From assembly GCA_040755695.1 (NCBI GenBank), contig JBFMAK010000004.1, positions 34,112 to 98,111 on the forward strand: a DNA stretch of 64,000 nucleotides, in the 5' to 3' direction. Position numbers and translations under genes: made by a program. Positions within the stretch are counted from its first letter, which is position 1. Every line of letters begins with the position of its first letter. Below the pieces are notes generated by a model. It had not been told where the DNA came from, did not search any database, and saw only the letters and a program-made list of their open reading frames with translations. Positions 4,821 through 62,770 of this stretch are shown here, piece by piece. The DNA is from Candidatus Iainarchaeum sp. (GTDB lineage: Archaea > Iainarchaeota > Iainarchaeia > Iainarchaeales > 1-14-0-10-31-34).

Positions 4821-4904
4821 GCGGGGGTCGGATAGCGGTCTATTCCACCAGCTTGAGGGGCTGGCGCCTCAGTGGCTTCGAGAGTTCGAATCTCTCCCCC
4901 CGCA
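4821..4904 (+). tRNA. tRNA-Leu(GAG)
   Basis: Acceptor GCGGGGG/CCCCCGC, anticodon arm CCAGC-TTGAGGG-GCTGG, long variable arm, T arm GAGAG-TTCGAAT-CTCTC. Confidence 0.95.
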
Positions 4905-4933
4905 AATCAGAACCTTGCGGTTCCGATACCTCC
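4905..4933 (+). repeat. Dispersed hairpin repeat family A, copy 1
   Basis: AATCAGAACCTTGCGGTTCCGATACCTCC abuts the tRNA-Leu discriminator base; further copies at 10224, 10286, 12321 and 27885. Confidence 0.92.
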
Positions 4934-9981: not shown

Positions 9982-10060
9982 TCTTTTTCCTTTTTGGGCA
10001 ACTTTCCCTTTCTTTTTTGGGATAACGTAACACTTTTTTCTTTCGGGAAAGAAAAAAGGG
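9982..10060 (-). repeat. Dispersed repeat family B, copy 3' of tRNA-Ser(TGA)
   Basis: Minus strand: CCC-TTTTTTCTTT-CCCG-AAAGAAAAAAG-TGTTACGTTATCCC-AAAAAAGAAAG-GGAAAGTTGCCC-AAAAAGGAAAAAG; same architecture as 10112-10184, 26778-26875 and 62629-62770. Confidence 0.75.
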
Positions 10061-10065
10061 TCCGA

Positions 10066-10222
10066 CGCGGAGGACGAGATTCGAACTCGCGTGAGCTTTT
10101 GCTCGCCAGCTTTCCTGCCGCCATTTTTTTCTCTTTGGGGCAACTTACCACTTTCTCTTTTTTCTAAAAAGAGAAAGGGGCAGGCTCAAGGCTGGTGCGT
10201 TGGACCACTCCGCCACCTCCGC
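10066..10222 (-). tRNA. tRNA-Ser(TGA) with a 73-nt intron at 37/38 (10112-10184)
   Basis: Acceptor GCGGAGG/CCTCCGC; CCAGC-CT-TGA-G|intron|A-GCTGG; canonical BHB (CTTG/CAGG central helix, two 3-nt bulges, CTGCC/GGCGG intron helix); long variable arm. Confidence 0.95.
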
Positions 10223-10367
10223 AAATCAGAAACTACGTTTCCGATACCTTCCTTGTATTACATTCGCTTGCGCTCAGTAATACTTATCAGAACCTTGCGG
10301 TTCCGATACCTTCCAACCGGTCCGTCAGTTGACGCCGGTGCACTACATTCGCTACGCTCAGTAGTGC
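10223..10367 (+). repeat. Mosaic array of hairpin modules (A-C-A-x-C) upstream of tRNA-Ser(TGA)
   Basis: Family A copies at 10224-10252 and 10286-10314; hairpins GTATTAC-attcgcttgcgctca-GTAATAC (10255-10283) and GCACTAC-attcgctacgctca-GTAGTGC (10340-10367). Confidence 0.85.
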
Positions 10368-12321: not shown

Positions 12322-12350
12322 ATCAGAACCTTGCGGTTCCGATACCTCCC
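12321..12350 (+). repeat. Dispersed hairpin repeat family A, copy between convergent genes
   Basis: AATCAGAACCTTGCGGTTCCGATACCTCCC; the first 29 nt are identical to the 4905 copy. Confidence 0.92.
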
Positions 12351-14077: not shown

Positions 14078-14151
14078 TGGACCGGTCGGGATTTGAACCC
14101 GAATTCTCTCGGATGCGAACCGAGCGCATTGCCAGGTTGTGCTACCGGCCC
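14078..14151 (-). tRNA. tRNA-Ala(CGC)
   Basis: Reverse complement GGGCCGG...CTCGG-TTCGCAT-CCGAG...TCGGG-TTCAAAT-CCCGA-CCGGTCC-A. Confidence 0.95.
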
Positions 14152-14729: not shown

Positions 14730-17700
14730 ATGAGCGAAGAAGAGGAAAAGCCAAGGGCTGAAAGCGGGGAAGAAAAGCACAGGGTGGAGAAGAGCATTGT
14801 GAAGGAAGACAACGACATATTTGATGAAGTGTTTGAGGGAAAAAAGGAAAAGAGGGTGGAGCAAAGAATTGAAGAGACTGAAGAAGAGGAAAAAGAAATG
14901 AATGAAAAGGAAGGAAAGGAATTAGGAGGGGAAGAGGAATTAATTCCAATTAAAGAAAAAAAGAAGAAAAAAGAAAAGGAAAAGAAGTTGAAGGGCGTTG
15001 AAGGCGCAAGGCAGGAAATGCTCCAAGAAAAAGAGAAAGACAAACTCAAGAGGGAGATAATAAAAAAGGCATTGAAGTCTGCAACAATAGAGCCAGAGAT
15101 AATGGAACCTGAAATTGAAGAAGTAGAATTAGAGCCTGAAGAGATAAGCCCTGAAGACATTGAAGGCCTGGGAGAAAAATACCTTAAAGAAGAATTAGGA
15201 GAAAAAGAAAGCGAAGTAGAATTAATTGAGCCTGCAACAGTGCCTTTAAGGTTTCTGGAGTATGAAGCAAAAAATTCTGTTTTCATTGGAAGAAAAAAAT
15301 CAGTCTTCCAGTCCTACAAGGACGAGGCAGGCCTCTTGATTGGGAGAGTGGAAGAAGACGGAAAACATAAAGAAAAAACAGTATTATTAGACGGACTGAA
15401 CCCTCACGTAATATTTGTTTGCGGCGCGAGAGGATCGGGAAAATGCCTTACAGGCGATTCACTGATAACATTAGAAGACGGATCAATTATACCTATAAAA
15501 GAATTAGAATACAACAACAAAAGGGTCTTGGGATTAAATCATGAACTAAAAATAGTTCCATTAAAAAAAGAGGGCTTTTACAAAAGAAAAGTAGACAAAT
15601 TGTTTTCTCTCCTGTTAAGGAGTGGAAGAGAAATAAAATTGACTCCAGAACACCCTCTCCTTACAATTAATGGGTGGGTGCAGGCACAAGAACTAAAAAG
15701 AAAAGACAGTATAGCAACTCCAAGAATTCTTAATGTGTTTGGAAACAGTAAAATGAAAGAAGGGGATGTAAAGCTTTTAGCTTATTTTATAGCAGAAGGC
15801 CATCTTGGAAATGCCTTTGTATTGTTTAGTAATCAAGACAAAAAAATAATTGAAGATTTCTCTAAAAGCATAAGGGAATTTGACGAAAACCTGAGGATCG
15901 AAGTGCACAGCAAAAGCTGGTGCTATAGAATAGCACAAAAAAAGAAAGGCATTGATTTAAGAAATATTGTAAGAAATGAAAAAGGGCAGTTTACAAACAA
16001 GGGTTTTGTCATTACACAAAAAAGCTCTCTGGCTAAATGGTTTGAAAGCATTGGCTTATACGGAAAGCTTTCAAAAGAGAAATTTATTCCGGAAGAAATA
16101 TTAAAGCTTTCAAAAGAACAACTGGCCTTATTTCTTAACAGGCTTTTCAGCTGTGATGGAAGCATTCACAAGGTAAGCGGAAGCGAAAAAAACTGGCTGA
16201 TTTCTTATGCTAGTTCCTCAGAGAAACTAATAAGGCAAGTGCAACACCTTCTGCTTAGATTTGGGATAATCTCAAAGATTAAACCAAAAAAAACAAAATT
16301 TAAAGAGAAAATATTTGATTCTTTTGAATTGGTTATTTCATCTGAAAGCGTAATCAAATTCATTCAAGAAATAGGCTTTTTTGGAATAAAAGAATTAAGA
16401 CAAGAAACTGCAATAAAAAACATGCTTGAAATTAACAGAAACCCCAACATAGATACAATTCCAAAAGACATTTGGGATATTTATAGGCCAAAGAATTGGA
16501 CGGCAACAGCCAGAGCTATGGGTTACAGCCAAAAGTCATTAAAGTCATTGCATAATGCCATAAATTATGCTCCTTCAAGAGAAAAGCTATTGAAAATTGC
16601 CCAAATAGATGAAAATAAGGGAGTACAACTGATAGCAGAATCAGACATTTTTTGGGATGAGGTAGTTGAATTAAAAGAAATAGAAGGGGAAGAAGTGTAT
16701 GATATTTCTGTCCCAGAATACCACAATTTTATTGCAAACGATATAATTGTTCATAATTCTTACGTCCTTGGAGTCATAGCAGAGGAACTGGCTCTAAGAA
16801 ACAAGAACATTGGCACAATAGTAATTGACCCTGTGGGAGTATTCTGGAGCATGAGGTATCCAAACAAAGAGGAAAAAGAATTAAAGGAATTAATTGAATG
16901 GAATTTAATGCCTCAAGGCCTGGAGAACTTAAAGGTATTCGTGCCAGAAGGCATTAAAGCAGAAATTCCAAGGAATACTTACGATGCAACATTTGCAGTA
17001 CTGCCTTCAATGCTTTCAGTGGAAGACTGGTGCCTTACGTTTGGAATGGAGCGCTTTGGGCCGACAGGCCTTCTGTTAGACAAAGTACTCAAAAAAATAG
17101 AGCATGGTTATAAGACAACAGAAGCAAAATACATTAAAGCAAAGAAAGGAAACTACAGCTTGGAGGAATTGATTCAATGCCTTGAAACAGAAGAAGAATT
17201 AAATTCAAAAGAGAGAGGCTACAAGCAAGATTCCATCAGGGCTCTGGCTTCAAGGCTTGAAGCAGCAAAGAACTGGGGCATATTCTCAGAGAAAGGCACT
17301 CCATTAAGCGAATTAAGCAGGGAAAACCAGCTTACTGTTTTAGACACAAGCTTTTTAGAGGACAATGTCGGGGCATTAGTAATAGGGATTCTGGCTAGAA
17401 GAATCCTTTCAGCAAGAAAGATTTCTACAAGAAAAGAGAGCGCAAAAAAATTGAAGGCAAGCATGGACGAAATGCTTGAACTGGAGATTCCTCCAACATG
17501 GCTGTTCATAGATGAAGCCCACACTTTAATTCCCTCAGGGAATGTAAAAACGCCTGCAACAGAGGCTTTAGTGGAATACGTAAAGCAGGGAAGGAGGCCT
17601 GGCTGCAGCATTGTTTTTGCAACACAGCAGCCCAGCGCAATAGACACAAAGGTTTTATCCCAATTGGATATTCTTATTTCGCATAAACTGGTTTTTGACG

Positions 17701-18932
17701 ACGACATAAAAGCAATATACAAGAGGATTCCGACAATAATTCCATTCAAATACAAGAAAAGCAATTTCATTAGGACTCTCCCAATTGGAAAAGCATTAGT
17801 AGGAGACAGGAGAGAGGAAACAAGCAGGGCTTTCGTGCTGAGCATTAGGCCCAGGATAAGCCAGCACGAAGGAAGGGATGTAGAGGCAACATCAATTGAA
17901 TCAAAAATGAGCGAAGAACAAGTCCAAAAACTTGCAGTGGAAATGCTTATCTCAAAATTGAACAGGGAAGGAGAAATAGAATTGCCTCAAGTGAATTCGC
18001 TTATTGACACGCTGAACAGCAAGTATAAAACAAAGGTAATGCTCTCCTCAGTTCTTGACGCCCTTGAAGACAAGATGGTTTCAATTGATTCAGAGAAAAT
18101 ATTCCTGCCTTCAGCAATAAAAAAAGAGGAAGAAATAGCAGAAAGAAAGGAATTAATTGAAGAAAAAGGAATTGAAAGGGGAATTGAAGGCAAAGCAGAA
18201 GAAATGGCAGAAGCATTTCATTCGTTCCCGATCAGATTCAGTGAAGAGAGAGCCAGAAGGATTGCTGAAAGCGCAAGGAAGAAGAAAAAATTGGGTTTGA
18301 TTGGAAGGGAAGAGCAATTGAAATCTTTGAATCTGTACTACGAAAAAATATTCAAGATTCAATACAATGACTTTAACCAAAGACAGGAATTCTTTTCCAA
18401 CAACTGTTATGTGAGTTCTGAGACCGGTGAATTTCTGCATGCAACAGACAGAGAATTCATTGAATCAAAAGGATTCTCAAAAGTCATTCCCTTAGGAAGG
18501 GATGAAGCAAGCACTCTCGGAAGGCTTATTGAAAGAAAAAACCTGAAAGAATTAATTGGGCTGGGAGGCATAAGCGAAGAGAAAGCAAAGAAAGTGCTCG
18601 AAGAACTTACAAGAAAAGGATTCGTGAAAAAAGAATTAAAAGAGGGGAAGGCATCCTATTTCCTCAACTCGCAATTAGAGCTTCCGCCAAACCCAAGGCA
18701 CAAAATTGTCAATTCACTGGATGAACTGCCTTTAACAGAAATAAAAGCAGGGCAAGTCAAGAAAGAAAACTTCACTGAAAGCCAGGTAATGCAGGCCCTG
18801 CAAAACTATTGGCCTTCAATTGTAATCAAAAAGCTTTCATTAATACTGAAGCCCTACTTTGAGGCTGTCCTAGAAGAAGCAGGAAAAGAAAGAAGGCTTA
18901 AGATAGACGCAATCACGGGAAAAATAATTTAA
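14730..18932 (+). CDS. HerA/FtsK-superfamily (DUF87-like) ATPase with an intein and a long acidic N-terminus
   Basis: Walker A GARGSGK|S split by the intein, IVIDPVG, Walker B LFIDEAH, QGRRPGCSIVFATQQP; about 962 aa after splicing. Confidence 0.88.
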   Translation: MSEEEEKPRAESGEEKHRVEKSIVKEDNDIFDEVFEGKKEKRVEQRIEETEEEEKEMNEKEGKELGGEEELIPIKEKKKKKEKEKKLKGVEGARQEMLQEKEKDKLKREIIKKALKSATIEPEIMEPEIEEVELEPEEISPEDIEGLGEKYLKEELGEKESEVELIEPATVPLRFLEYEAKNSVFIGRKKSVFQSYKDEAGLLIGRVEEDGKHKEKTVLLDGLNPHVIFVCGARGSGKCLTGDSLITLEDGSIIPIKELEYNNKRVLGLNHELKIVPLKKEGFYKRKVDKLFSLLLRSGREIKLTPEHPLLTINGWVQAQELKRKDSIATPRILNVFGNSKMKEGDVKLLAYFIAEGHLGNAFVLFSNQDKKIIEDFSKSIREFDENLRIEVHSKSWCYRIAQKKKGIDLRNIVRNEKGQFTNKGFVITQKSSLAKWFESIGLYGKLSKEKFIPEEILKLSKEQLALFLNRLFSCDGSIHKVSGSEKNWLISYASSSEKLIRQVQHLLLRFGIISKIKPKKTKFKEKIFDSFELVISSESVIKFIQEIGFFGIKELRQETAIKNMLEINRNPNIDTIPKDIWDIYRPKNWTATARAMGYSQKSLKSLHNAINYAPSREKLLKIAQIDENKGVQLIAESDIFWDEVVELKEIEGEEVYDISVPEYHNFIANDIIVHNSYVLGVIAEELALRNKNIGTIVIDPVGVFWSMRYPNKEEKELKELIEWNLMPQGLENLKVFVPEGIKAEIPRNTYDATFAVLPSMLSVEDWCLTFGMERFGPTGLLLDKVLKKIEHGYKTTEAKYIKAKKGNYSLEELIQCLETEEELNSKERGYKQDSIRALASRLEAAKNWGIFSEKGTPLSELSRENQLTVLDTSFLEDNVGALVIGILARRILSARKISTRKESAKKLKASMDEMLELEIPPTWLFIDEAHTLIPSGNVKTPATEALVEYVKQGRRPGCSIVFATQQPSAIDTKVLSQLDILISHKLVFDDDIKAIYKRIPTIIPFKYKKSNFIRTLPIGKALVGDRREETSRAFVLSIRPRISQHEGRDVEATSIESKMSEEQVQKLAVEMLISKLNREGEIELPQVNSLIDTLNSKYKTKVMLSSVLDALEDKMVSIDSEKIFLPSAIKKEEEIAERKELIEEKGIERGIEGKAEEMAEAFHSFPIRFSEERARRIAESARKKKKLGLIGREEQLKSLNLYYEKIFKIQYNDFNQRQEFFSNNCYVSSETGEFLHATDREFIESKGFSKVIPLGRDEASTLGRLIERKNLKELIGLGGISEEKAKKVLEELTRKGFVKKELKEGKASYFLNSQLELPPNPRHKIVNSLDELPLTEIKAGQVKKENFTESQVMQALQNYWPSIVIKKLSLILKPYFEAVLEEAGKERRLKIDAITGKII
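15444..16757 (+). mobile_element. Intein (438 aa) with a LAGLIDADG homing endonuclease
   Basis: Starts CLTGDSLI; block B IKLTPEHPLLT; LAGLIDADG-like LLAYFIAEG and LNRLFSCDG; ends VYDISV...HNFIANDIIVHN with Ser as the +1 residue. Confidence 0.95.
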
Positions 18933-26695: not shown

Positions 26696-26777
26696 GCTGG
26701 GGTCGGATAATGGCATTCCACTGGCCTCGAGAGCCAGCGCCCTCAAGGGCATGAGAGTTCAAGTCTCTCCCCCAGCG
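26696..26777 (+). tRNA. tRNA-Ser(CGA)
   Basis: GCTGGGG/CCCCAGC acceptor, CTGGC-CTCGAGA-GCCAG anticodon arm, long variable arm. Confidence 0.95.
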
Positions 26778-26875
26778 CTGCCCCTTCTTTTCTTTAGAAA
26801 AGAAAAGAAGCGGTAAGTTGCCGGAAGAAAAGAAAGTAAAAAGTGCAAGGAGCCCAAAAAAAGAAAAAAGAAGAT
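26778..26875 (+). repeat. Dispersed repeat family B, copy 3' of tRNA-Ser(CGA)
   Basis: CTGCCC-CTTCTTTTCTTT-AGA-AAAGAAAAGAAG-CGGTAAGTTGCC..., 36/45 identical without gaps to the tRNA-Ser(TGA) intron. Confidence 0.88.
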
Positions 26876-26890
26876 TGTTAATTAAATTAT

Positions 26891-27259
26891 TTATCTTCTG
26901 AATATCCTTCTGTAAAGTTTCCTTACAGGGTGTTTTTTAGTTCTTACATGACCGGGTTCATTTATTATTGTATGATTAATTCTGCCTAGGAAATCATATT
27001 TCTTTTCAATTGTTTTAAAAGAAGTGCTGCCGTCCATAATACTTCTTATTTTACGCATTACTGTTTCTGACTGTCTTTTTCCGTTATGGCCCCACACTCG
27101 TTCTATTGTTGTGGTTTTTTCGGGCATATTAGTACTTATATGGTCAACTTTTTTTCTGATTATGATTTCTCTAAATACATTATTTGGTTTATCAAATATT
27201 ATGTCTTTGGATCTTCCATTAATTGCTTCTCTAACTTGTTGCTCTGTCAAATTTTTCAT
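26891..27259 (-). CDS. Small basic hypothetical protein (ORFan)
   Basis: 122-aa ORF with an R/K-rich C-terminus (HPVRKLYRRIFRR); TATA-like TTTATATAA upstream. Confidence 0.6.
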   Translation of the reverse strand: MKNLTEQQVREAINGRSKDIIFDKPNNVFREIIIRKKVDHISTNMPEKTTTIERVWGHNGKRQSETVMRKIRSIMDGSTSFKTIEKKYDFLGRINHTIINEPGHVRTKKHPVRKLYRRIFRR

Positions 27260-27847: not shown

Positions 27848-27971
27848 GCGGCTATAGTCTAGTGGTTAGGATTCGAGCTTCCCAAATCAGAACCTAACGG
27901 TTCCGATACCTCCCTTAAGAGGTTGTGATTGGAGTGAGCTCGCTACCCGGGTTCGAATCCCGGTAGCCGCA
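27848..27971 (+). tRNA. tRNA-Gly(CCC) with a 52-nt intron at 37/38 (27885-27936, boundary ambiguous by 1 nt)
   Basis: GCGGCTA/TAGCCGC acceptor; CGAGC-TT-CCC-A|intron|A-GCTCG; central helix TTCC/GGAG with a relaxed BHB; T arm CCGGG-TTCGAAT-CCCGG. Confidence 0.93.
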
Positions 27972-62291: not shown

Positions 62292-62631
62292 GGCGGGTAG
62301 GACAAGGCCAGCTGACGGTTCCTTAAGTGGAGCTGAGGAAAGTCCGTCCATCCAAACTTTTTGAAAAAAGTTTGATCAAAACAAACTTTTAAGAAAAGTT
62401 TGATCAAAAAACACTTGAAAAGGTGGCTCTCGGAACAGAAACGAAACCATTCAAGGATTACAATGAATGAAAAAAGAGGTTCTTTGAATATAGTTTCAAG
62501 CTTTGCTTGAAATTTTTCAAAGCTTTGCTTTGAAATAGGATGAAACGGCTGAGAGCAGATGCAAGCCTTCAATGGCGCTCAGGTGAATGCTGGATAAAAA
62601 CAAAAGACGGCTTACTCTGTCCTGCTCCGCC
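62292..62631 (+). ncRNA. rnpB: RNase P RNA
   Basis: P1 GGGTAGGACA/TGTCCTGCTC; P2 CCAGC/GCTGG; conserved GAGGAAAGTCC, ACAGAAA, GATGAAACG, GAATGC and ACAAAAGACGGCTTA; P4 AAGTCCG/CGGCTT. Confidence 0.9.
62353..62409 (+). repeat. Tandem family D hairpins inside the RNase P RNA
   Basis: CAAACTTTT-TGAA-AAAAGTTTG-ATCAAAA followed by CAAACTTTT-AAG-AAAAGTTTG-ATCAAAA. Confidence 0.88.
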
Positions 62632-62770
62632 CTTTTCTTTTAAAAAAAGAAAAGTGCAGGTTGCCCAAAAGAAAAGAAGCGGCAAGTTGCTGGAAGAAAA
62701 GAAAAAAAGCGACAGGCTGTCGGAAAGAAAGAAAATTAACGGGTTGCCTCAAAAGAAAAAAGAAAGGGGT
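62629..62770 (+). repeat. Dispersed repeat family B, expanded copy 3' of the RNase P RNA
   Basis: CTTTTCTTTT-AAA-AAAAGAAAAG hairpin, then four purine-tract/mini-hairpin units (TGCAGGTTGCCC, CGGCAAGTTGCTG, CGACAGGCTGTCG, ACGGGTTGCCT). Confidence 0.8.

Follow-up and report, generated by a model that had tools for sequence, protein, structure and literature searches.

A structured repeat that opens tRNA introns and follows stable-RNA genes in Iainarchaeota-type DPANN archaea

Background

Why does the intron of a tRNA gene begin with a sequence that also lies directly behind another tRNA gene? The question is raised by the tRNA-Ser(TGA) gene in a 64-kb stretch of an archaeal chromosome, which was analysed as a whole and is called the window below. 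The window has a G+C content of about 37% and its genes include those for ribosomal proteins L1, L10, L12 and L11, Spt5/NusG, nrdD and two ftsZ. Of the loci that were fetched, those closest to the window come from MAGs labelled Candidatus Iainarchaeum and from one unclassified archaeon (JAUSKK01, JBDRIL01, JACPJC01), and the genes that they have in common with the window are about 70-79% identical at the DNA level.

The origin of tRNA introns in archaea is an old open question that is usually argued from static intron distributions. In Thermoproteales, similar bulge-helix-bulge (BHB) introns occur in many tRNA species at canonical as well as non-canonical positions (Fujishima et al. 2010, as described in PMC4033280), and in that description the sharing is read as gain by transposition, the mechanism of which is not known. 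A first-pass annotation of the window had interpreted the intron of tRNA-Ser(TGA) as one copy of a non-coding, mobile hairpin element that targets stable-RNA genes and is tolerated inside them as a BHB intron, and had suggested this as a route for the birth of tRNA introns.

Results and discussion

The intron of tRNA-Ser(TGA)

Six stable-RNA genes were found in the window with ARAGORN and Rfam:

4821-4904, + strand, tRNA-Leu(GAG)
10066-10222, - strand, tRNA-Ser(TGA) with one intron after nucleotide 37 (Rfam tRNA, 44.6 bits; ARAGORN -i, tRNA-Ser(tga) i(38,73))
14078-14151, - strand, tRNA-Ala(CGC)
26696-26778, + strand, tRNA-Ser(CGA), intronless (ARAGORN; Rfam, 51.1 bits at the E-value threshold)
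27848-27971, + strand, tRNA-Gly(CCC) with an intron
62296-62626, + strand, RNase P RNA, archaeal type (Rfam RF00373, 119.9 bits, model positions 1-288)

The intron of tRNA-Ser(TGA) was delimited by ARAGORN with introns allowed, by reading of the sequence and by constrained folding. It runs from 10184 to 10112 between nucleotides 37 and 38 of the tRNA (G37 at 10185, A38 at 10111), and approximately its first 60 nt are made up by a repeat that is here called element A:

10112-10184, - strand, BHB intron of tRNA-Ser(TGA), 73 nt
10124-10183, - strand, element A, intron copy (mirror match 11/11)
10183-10179, - strand, CTGCC
10177-10166, - strand, pyrimidine arm
10165-10163, - strand, loop AGA
10162-10151, - strand, purine arm
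10148-10139, - strand, mini-hairpin GTAAGTTGCC
10136-10124, - strand, mirror purine run

Read from 10183 to 10139, the intron can be aligned without gaps to the sequence behind tRNA-Ser(CGA) (26778-26822) with 36 of 45 positions identical. The nine differences comprise four double changes (T-A to C-G or the reverse) within a perfect 12-bp stem, which account for eight of them, and a ninth in the linker, so the match and the four compensatory pairs of the first-pass annotation were reproduced. The other 45-mers of the window, compared on both strands, have a mean score of 11.7 (sd 3.1) and top scores of 24-27; scores of 30 and 32 are palindromic stems read on the opposite strand. Because the background maximum is 27 apart from such palindromic self-overlaps, the similarity between intron and trailer is not a low-complexity accident.

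The intron copy had also been described as closed by a canonical BHB, and a constrained fold agrees with this. The element's CUGCC pairs with GGCGG near the 3' end of the intron (10122-10118) in a 5-bp inner helix, the anticodon-loop CUUG pairs with CAGG (10117-10114) in a 4-bp helix, and the anticodon stem is formed by 10195-10191 and 10110-10106. There are two bulges of 3 nt each, AGC and AAA. With the BHB imposed as a folding constraint, each of the 14 pairs that define the motif is standard or G.U and the free energy is -28.1 kcal/mol, compared with -32.5 kcal/mol for the unconstrained minimum, which does not return the BHB. On this model the intron fits the canonical motif and is a predicted substrate of the splicing endonuclease. 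A C/D-box sRNA in the introns was rejected on reading the sequence, element A being without C or D boxes.

Copies behind other stable-RNA genes

Perfect pyrimidine/purine hairpins of at least 10 bp are found in only four places in the 64 kb, and all four are oriented in the sense of their RNA gene:

10151-10177, hairpin in the tRNA-Ser(TGA) intron
10033-10058, hairpin in the tRNA-Ser(TGA) trailer
26784-26810, hairpin in the tRNA-Ser(CGA) trailer
62632-62654, hairpin in the RNase P RNA trailer

None of the 59 protein ORFs of the window is followed by such a hairpin. The three trailer hairpins belong to longer copies of the repeat:

9982-10065, - strand, element A-like copy directly 3' of tRNA-Ser(TGA) (mirror 10/11, direct 9/11)
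26779-26875, + strand, element A copy 1 nt past the 3' end of tRNA-Ser(CGA) (core 26779-26836)
62627-62770, + strand, element A copy immediately 3' of RNase P RNA (core 62627-62679, mini-hairpin GCAGGTTGCC)

The copy behind tRNA-Ser(TGA) is a member of a sister subfamily with another hinge. Its hairpin (10058-10033) is followed by the mini-hairpin variant TGTTACGTTATCC and the mirror run AAAAAAGAAA, then by an extra GGAAAGTTGCC with a purine unit and finally by the promoter-like TTATAATT of the next gene. The copy behind tRNA-Ser(CGA) has one extra mini-hairpin and purine unit after its core and ends just short of the stop of a convergent ORF (26891-27259), and the copy behind RNase P RNA has three additional units of mini-hairpin and purine run. 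The Rfam match to RNase P RNA stops at 62626 and the repeat begins at 62627, so the related copies that had been noted in sense orientation at the 3' ends of tRNA-Ser(TGA) and RNase P RNA are confirmed. The flank copies open with runs of T4-T7 no more than 10 nt from the RNA 3' end, and they lie between the stable-RNA gene and the next promoter or the stop of a convergent gene.

Anatomy and covariation of element A

A scan of metagenomes gave matches in 87 contigs, and these together with the window and two related MAGs provided 77 distinct copies. The search pattern was drawn from copies in the related MAGs and contained the mini-hairpin with its purine flanks only, so that neither the hairpin nor the mirror was required; the full plan is nevertheless present in nearly all metagenome matches. 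Element A is thus a real repeat family, as had been proposed, and a non-coding, structure-constrained repeat of Iainarchaeota-type DPANN archaea.

The element is about 55-65 nt long and consists of CTGCC(C), a pyrimidine arm of 8-16 nt, a loop of 3-5 nt, a perfectly complementary purine arm, 0-2 nt, a mini-hairpin GYARGTTGCC divided as G-Y-A/R-G-T/T-G-C, 0-2 C and a second purine run. The hairpin of the first-pass annotation is therefore real, but the element is more than a hairpin because CTGCC at the 5' end, a mini-hairpin of invariant sequence and a purine tract as third strand belong to it as well. CTGCC is nearly invariant, and CTGCC(C) is located directly 5' of the stem in most copies; the mini-hairpin is GTAAGTTGCC in 69 of the 77. 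The purine arms, in contrast, are found in 46 versions, and the stems are built up by 707 T-A, 195 C-G and 3 T.G pairs over all copies. Within one genome the arms differ among all copies, unlike a burst of identical transposon copies. In one copy (L147/L200) the loop itself holds a further hairpin.

The second purine run does not repeat the purine arm and is not complementary to it either. In 72 of 77 copies it is the exact mirror image of the arm, against a mean of 15 and a maximum of 25 such matches for random pairings of arms with runs. Where the arms are asymmetric, in 34 copies, the mirror fits 30 and a direct repeat 7. The more G there are at the end of the purine arm, the more C follow GTTGCC, and the mini-hairpin is longer in the CG...CG variants, which suggests that the mini-hairpin is a hinge that would lay the run back along the stem in register. 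On a single strand, short loops connect a pyrimidine tract to its reverse complement and this to its own mirror image, which is the layout of an intrastrand triplex. A three-stranded helix is the only structural rationale for the mirror run, because mirror repeats come from no template-copying process and symmetric proteins do not read them; the triplex itself is a prediction from sequence.

The strands of the putative triplex would be purine-purine-pyrimidine on the tRNA-sense strand and pyrimidine-purine-pyrimidine on the opposite strand. The sense strand is favoured for the fold, since the mini-hairpin commonly has a T.G pair, for which the opposite strand would have C x A. Purine-purine-pyrimidine triplexes are well established for DNA and doubtful for RNA, and if the folded strand is RNA this would be the first natural RNA triplex of that kind. 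The covariation of three strands is unusually clean sequence evidence for a natural triple-helical fold.

Triple helices and tRNA-type processing are combined also in the ENE/MALAT1 3' end, where a triple helix of two U-rich strands and one A-rich strand adjoins a tRNA-like structure that is processed by RNase P. The likeness is that a motif capable of a triple helix is associated with a tRNA-type processing site. However, in element A the sense strand combines a single U-rich tract with two A-rich ones, and the ENE pattern is found only on the antisense strand, where the mini-hairpin would hold the C x A mismatch. The bacterial intrastrand triplex repeats (PIT/TM; Holder et al. 2015, PMC4666352) are similar in having three consecutive tracts on one strand able to fold into a triple helix. 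These repeats are abundant, intergenic and G/C-rich, in vivo footprinting did not support a stable triplex (PMC4666352), and an earlier study had, as cited in PMC4666352, found no terminator activity. Element A differs in being A/T-rich, in its conserved mini-hairpin hinge and in covarying over 46 arm variants; the bacterial motif is without a tie to tRNA genes or introns.

Placement at gene and exon boundaries

The placement of the 77 copies was counted with ARAGORN, introns allowed, and further sites were identified by reading the flanks. At least 50 copies are in or against tRNA genes, which constitute about 1% of the DNA analysed. Twenty-one copies are inside canonical introns, in sense and at the start of the intron, and 13 abut or overlap the tRNA 3' end, also in sense. 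About 12 are in T-loop introns (GGTTCAA directly followed by CTGCC; checked in L154 and L145) and one is in a D-loop intron (L123). Relative to the tRNA, 35 copies are sense and 5 antisense, the latter including those in L017, L141, L197 and L202. One copy begins two bases past a 5S rRNA gene (L190), six of the remaining copies begin 0-4 nt past the stop codon of a same-strand ORF, and some are found in other intergenic DNA. The CTGCC end meets a gene or exon boundary in every case, antisense copies included. The association with stable-RNA genes that had been put forward is thus strong (tRNA, RNase P RNA and 5S rRNA) and biased 35:5 towards sense, but it is not exclusive because of the copies behind stop codons and in intergenic DNA.

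Element A opens introns of Ser(TGA, GGA, CGA and GCT), Asn, Gly, Arg, Tyr, Leu, Glu and Pro-type tRNAs. In this it agrees with transposed or mobile archaeal tRNA introns, which are recognised by nearly the same sequence turning up in several tRNA species. The intron copies have a stretch resembling GCAG, GGCAG or GGCGG, 6-10 nt before the 3' splice site, that is able to pair with CTGCC, and the final nucleotides of the intron are specific to the anticodon loop of the host tRNA.

Introns gained or lost

The tRNA-Ser(TGA) gene of one relative (L066) is syntenic with that of the window, being divergent from the same fibronectin-type-III gene, and has a longer intron with element A at its start. 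A homologous gene in another (L092) has element A at the same place and also shares a reverse-oriented hairpin of a second family, element B (described below), at its 5' end. The intron is therefore older than the separation of these genomes and is not a fresh insertion. Over 61 nt, the trailer of tRNA-Ser(CGA) in the window shares 93% of its positions with the L066 intron in tRNA-Ser(TGA), but it is only 80% identical to the intron in the window itself.

Genes with and without the intron were also found. The tRNA-Ser(TGA) gene on a metagenome contig (L138) is intronless, with 38 of 38 positions identical in the 5' half and element A directly 3' of the gene; it is taken as orthologous to the window gene from sequence identity, as synteny with the window, sought for L138, L127 and L193, gave nothing useful. 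The tRNA-Asn(GTT) gene beside ftsZ has an A intron of 79-81 nt in L096 and L184 and none in L061. L096, with an intron of 79 nt, and L061 differ by a clean indel flanked by CTGTTAA and CCGG, and the tRNA is upstream of ftsZ in both. Orthologous genes thus differ in presence of the intron for Asn(GTT) and, between the window and L138, for Ser(TGA). Such filled and empty alleles show that A introns have been acquired or lost within the time span that separates these genomes. The proposal of intron birth is strengthened by these alleles of Asn(GTT) and Ser(TGA), but the intron on which it was built is not a recent one and is shared with L066 and L092. Tandem arrays of element A in L166 and L182 are a further sign of turnover, as is the copy with a second hairpin inside its loop (L147/L200).

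A folded repeat or a host module?

The reading preferred here, with a probability of about 0.5, is that element A is a REP-like and introner-like folded repeat that enters gene ends and tRNA loops by insertion or recombination. The 5' end of a copy would be placed exactly on a processing boundary, which may be the 5' splice site after nucleotide 37, a T-loop or D-loop position, the first nucleotide behind a mature tRNA, 5S rRNA or RNase P RNA, or sometimes a stop codon. On the tRNA-sense strand, the pyrimidine arm, the purine arm and the mirror run would fold back on one another into a three-stranded helix. In a tRNA gene, CTGCC would pair with the GGCAG-like stretch near the 3' end of the intron to form the inner helix of a BHB, and the splicing endonuclease would then cut out the copy so that the insertion is harmless to the tRNA. 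Behind a gene, the T-rich arm and the T-rich complement of the purine runs probably act as a two-way terminator and insulator. Transcription from the convergent side, for example of the ORF ending at 26891, would meet T-runs from the complement of the purine runs. Spread would take place by insertion at the DNA level, through an enzyme that recognises the folded strand.

Bacterial REPs (REP-RAYT, MITE-like) resemble element A in that they are small hairpin repeats outside genes, have a short conserved motif at their 5' end, are located at the 3' ends of genes, form lineage-specific sequence families and are often exapted as terminators or stabilisers. Element A differs in that no RAYT or TnpA was found for it in the 64-kb window and the fetched loci, and in that it has copies inside genes as introns. 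It also has a third strand, the mirror run, which is not known from REPs, and its arms vary from copy to copy without loss of the structure. Introner elements of eukaryotic algae and fungi are repeated and non-autonomous and create introns by carrying or completing the splicing signals of the host. Element A is likewise repeated and non-autonomous and completes splice signals, but its splicing depends on a protein endonuclease acting on a BHB instead of the spliceosome, its targets are tRNA genes and no transposase was found with it among the window ORFs and the flanking ORFs. The transposed introns of Thermoproteales are the closest precedent, in which many tRNA species are hit as in element A. 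Compared with those introns as they are presented in PMC4033280, element A is found in DPANN, the shared part is a structured module of about 60 nt at the 5' end of the intron, the module also trails tRNA, 5S rRNA and RNase P RNA genes, and both empty and filled alleles are seen. Neither such a module nor trailer copies or empty alleles are part of that account.

Several observations are difficult for the preferred reading. No candidate transposase, integrase, reverse transcriptase, IS200/IS605 or RAYT protein is encoded among the 59 window ORFs, and no mobiliser candidate recurs among 100 ORFs flanking other copies; since this is so, the mobility of element A is inferred. Nor do these 59 and 100 ORFs include an autonomous, transposase-bearing relative of the kind that MITEs have. 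No target-site duplication is seen beyond an ambiguous AA at the Asn site, and in place of long terminal inverted repeats there is just the 4-5 nt pairing of CTGCC with GGCAG, in intron copies only. The last 6-10 nt of the intron must pair with the anticodon loop of its own tRNA, and a mobile element cannot supply them. The arms are all different within a genome and yet nearly every copy is structurally perfect, which argues for selection on each resident copy and not for recent copying. The sense bias of 35:5 would also fit a function at the RNA level. The first-pass interpretation is therefore partly supported. It was right in kind, and filled and empty alleles speak for a mobile element, but it went too far on the recency of the intron, on the exclusive association with stable RNAs and on mobility as a demonstrated property, the latter in view of the missing IS200/IS605 TnpA or RAYT-like candidates in the 59 and 100 ORFs.

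A weaker but serious alternative is that element A is a module selected by the host that marks or protects transcript ends, is bound by a lineage-specific protein, reaches introns by recombination between tRNA genes and is not itself mobile. Its role might be termination, insulation or stability of 3' ends through a hairpin-triplex cap. The structural perfection of nearly all copies, found with a pattern that required neither hairpin nor mirror, is what such a module would show, and invariant short motifs together with covarying arms resemble RNAs that are recognised by proteins. The strong sense orientation, the positions exactly past mature 3' ends and in some cases past stop codons, and the occurrence of one architecture in lineage-specific subfamilies across phyla point in the same direction, as do the flank copies of the window that separate a stable-RNA gene from the next promoter or convergent stop. 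However, a T-rich, terminator-like unit past the 5' splice site should harm the host tRNA. The element is absent from half of the stable-RNA genes and from all 59 protein ORFs in the window, and its several positions within tRNAs, tandem arrays, occasional antisense copies and presence or absence in closely related tRNA genes are not what a host module predicts. By analogy with bacterial REPs, this alternative and the REP-like, introner-like reading may overlap.

Mobility at the RNA level is improbable. In that case an excised intron RNA led by element A would be joined to other RNAs by reversed endonuclease and ligase chemistry and then copied into DNA. The coincidence of the element's 5' end with RNA cleavage sites (the 5' splice site and the RNase Z site) and the strong sense bias would be explained, and similar introns in many tRNA species recall the transposition that, according to PMC4033280, was proposed for Thermoproteales. 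On the other hand, a reverse transcriptase was found neither in the window nor among the flanking ORFs, antisense copies exist in L017, L141, L197 and L202, family B is often antisense at 5' flanks, and there are copies past ORFs and in intergenic DNA.

Ancestry from a split gene, in which the intron would be the fossil trailer of a 5'-half tRNA gene fused to the leader of a 3' half, is disfavoured and still less probable. Split tRNA genes are known in DPANN (PMC4033280), and the start of the intron is a trailer module elsewhere, but the similarity is too recent (93% between trailer and intron compared with about 75% for shared genes), introns at three different tRNA positions start with the same module and there are intronless alleles with identical exons. 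Chance low-complexity similarity or ordinary oligo-T terminators, for which the T/C and A/G runs of the arms, a genome rich in purine runs and the T-rich flank copies with their T-runs could be cited, are refuted by the 36/45 match against a background maximum of 27, by the invariant non-repetitive motifs, by 87 metagenome matches nearly all with a perfect hairpin and mirror unasked for by the pattern, by the mirror statistics, and by a distribution with none past the window protein genes (0 of 59 ORFs) and at least 21 copies inside tRNA genes.

Related subfamilies and element B

A structural scan for a hairpin plus a mirror run, with the hinge sequence unconstrained, recovered all four window copies together with diverged subfamilies. 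Other hinges with the same architecture are CGTTCACG, CCTTGG, CATTAATG, TACGTTRCC and others. These A-like subfamilies are found in MAGs labelled Altiarchaeota, Woesearchaeota, Aenigmatarchaeota and others, and their copies are located at the start of introns or immediately past tRNA 3' ends, with one subfamily per genome in both places.

Element B is a hairpin family unrelated to A with the core AAATCAGAACC-N3-4-GGTTCCGATACCTCC. It is present at five places in the window:

4906-4931, element B directly after tRNA-Leu
10225-10249 and 10286-10311, two reversed copies of element B against the 5' end of tRNA-Ser(TGA)
12322-12347, element B after an ORF
27886-27911, element B opening the tRNA-Gly(CCC) intron

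An exact-pattern scan of species-representative genomes found element B at no fewer than 120 loci over many archaeal phyla, and 42% of the matches listed are inside or within 100 nt of a tRNA identified by ARAGORN. Among the matches listed, the tRNA-linked copies are divided between the 3' flank in sense (13), the 5' flank in antisense (10) and introns (12), with essentially none in the reverse arrangements. The stem covaries, with GAACC/GGTTC in some copies and GAAAC/GTTTC in others. A C/D-box sRNA was rejected for element B on sequence reading, as CUGA is found on the reverse strand only. That two unrelated families follow the same placement rule makes a one-off coincidence very unlikely.

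A broader and more tentative proposal is that DPANN archaea contain "BHB introners" (element A, the A-like subfamilies and element B) which keep seeding and removing tRNA introns and trailers, element A propagating or persisting through an intramolecular triplex on the tRNA-sense strand. If true, the birth of protein-spliced introns could be studied and tested in a system where it is still going on. Element A provides concrete material for such tests: it is found both as a trailer and as an intron at three positions in tRNAs, alleles with and without it occur in related genomes, and it has lineage-specific subfamilies across several DPANN phyla. In practice, elements of this kind account for tRNA genes that gene finders overlook or mis-call in DPANN genomes, and elements A and B could be used as markers of intron turnover.

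Neither element is covered by an Rfam family at the gathering or the E<=1 threshold. Full-text literature searches with the core sequences of A and B gave unrelated primer matches only, and topic searches of the literature returned no description of them. The orthologous tRNA-Gly(CCC) gene of L066 has its intron at the same position as the window gene but with a completely different sequence. Viral contigs were scanned for both elements, with no match for element A and one for element B, which is located directly after a tRNA-Ser(GCT).

A second hairpin family at tRNA genes

Element B is a hairpin family unrelated to element A (the repeat of about 60 nt found in tRNA introns and trailers), and it shows the same duality of intron and flank at tRNA genes. 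Its consensus is ATCAGAANC-N2-4-GNTTCCGATACCT-CC(C/T)TT, and its tail, GATACCTCC, presumably resembles the 3' end of 16S rRNA. The window holds the following copies:

4906-4931 (+), directly 3' of tRNA-Leu
10225-10249 and 10286-10311 (+), in reverse orientation next to the 5' end of tRNA-Ser(TGA)
12322-12347 (+)
27886-27911 (+), at the start of the tRNA-Gly(CCC) intron

Outside the window, element B was sampled in loci L001-L121, and at least 120 exact-pattern matches, among the matches listed, came from archaeal metagenome-assembled genomes of many phyla. It is always the 5' end of element B that abuts the tRNA gene. The stem covaries, and an A x C mismatch is kept that reads as G.T on the opposite strand. 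Neither Rfam nor the literature gave a match to element B.

At several of the loci fetched for comparison (L014 6798-6936, L058 7557-7648, L073 521-545, L036, L095, L120 and L030), an intact tRNA gene is adjoined by tandem units, each consisting of a 17-nt copy of the tRNA 3' end (from the T-loop onward), CCAC, element B and an A/T run. They give the impression that part of the tRNA end was duplicated several times.

Turnover of intron content

The tRNA-Gly(CCC) gene of the window (27848-27971) has an ortholog in locus L066 (4389-4559), and a gene of the adenosine kinase family adjoins both. The two introns share their position but are unrelated in sequence: the one in L066 is 98 nt long and lacks element B, whereas that in the window is 52 nt long and contains it. 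The intron content thus turns over while the position remains fixed.

Variants of element A

Tandem arrays of element A with a period of 48 nt and a shortened pyrimidine arm were found inside T-loop introns in two loci (L166 1413-1537 and L182 3486-3563). In the only two copies with a T.G wobble in the stem (L183 and L197), the mirror run has an A and therefore matches the pyrimidine arm and not the mutated purine arm. In L147, L174 and L200, the stem loop of an element A copy is enlarged because a distinct hairpin (GACGCATCTTCGATGCGTC) has been inserted into it, pointing to nested insertion.

Hairpins in the RNase P RNA and other genes of the window

The RNase P RNA of the window is 331 nt long, compared with a model of 288 positions, and the gene contains hairpins of further types:

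62354-62411 and 62493-62535 (+), two tandem copies of a third-family hairpin (AAACTTTTnnGAAAAGTTTGATCAAAA) and two tandem hairpins of the TTTCAAGCTTTGCTTGAAA type

These may be tolerated helix expansions or spliced inserts. The AAACTTTTnnGAAAAGTTTGATCAAAA family also adjoins copies of element B or A in other loci (L005, L072, L055, L132, L162 and L190).

Two protein-coding genes were also recorded:

14730-18929 (+), HerA-like helicase ORF of 1400 amino acids
57958-58536, HNH_3 domain protein

An intein whose homing-endonuclease domain is of the LAGLIDADG type lies within the helicase ORF (Pfam Intein_splicing and LAGLIDADG_3).
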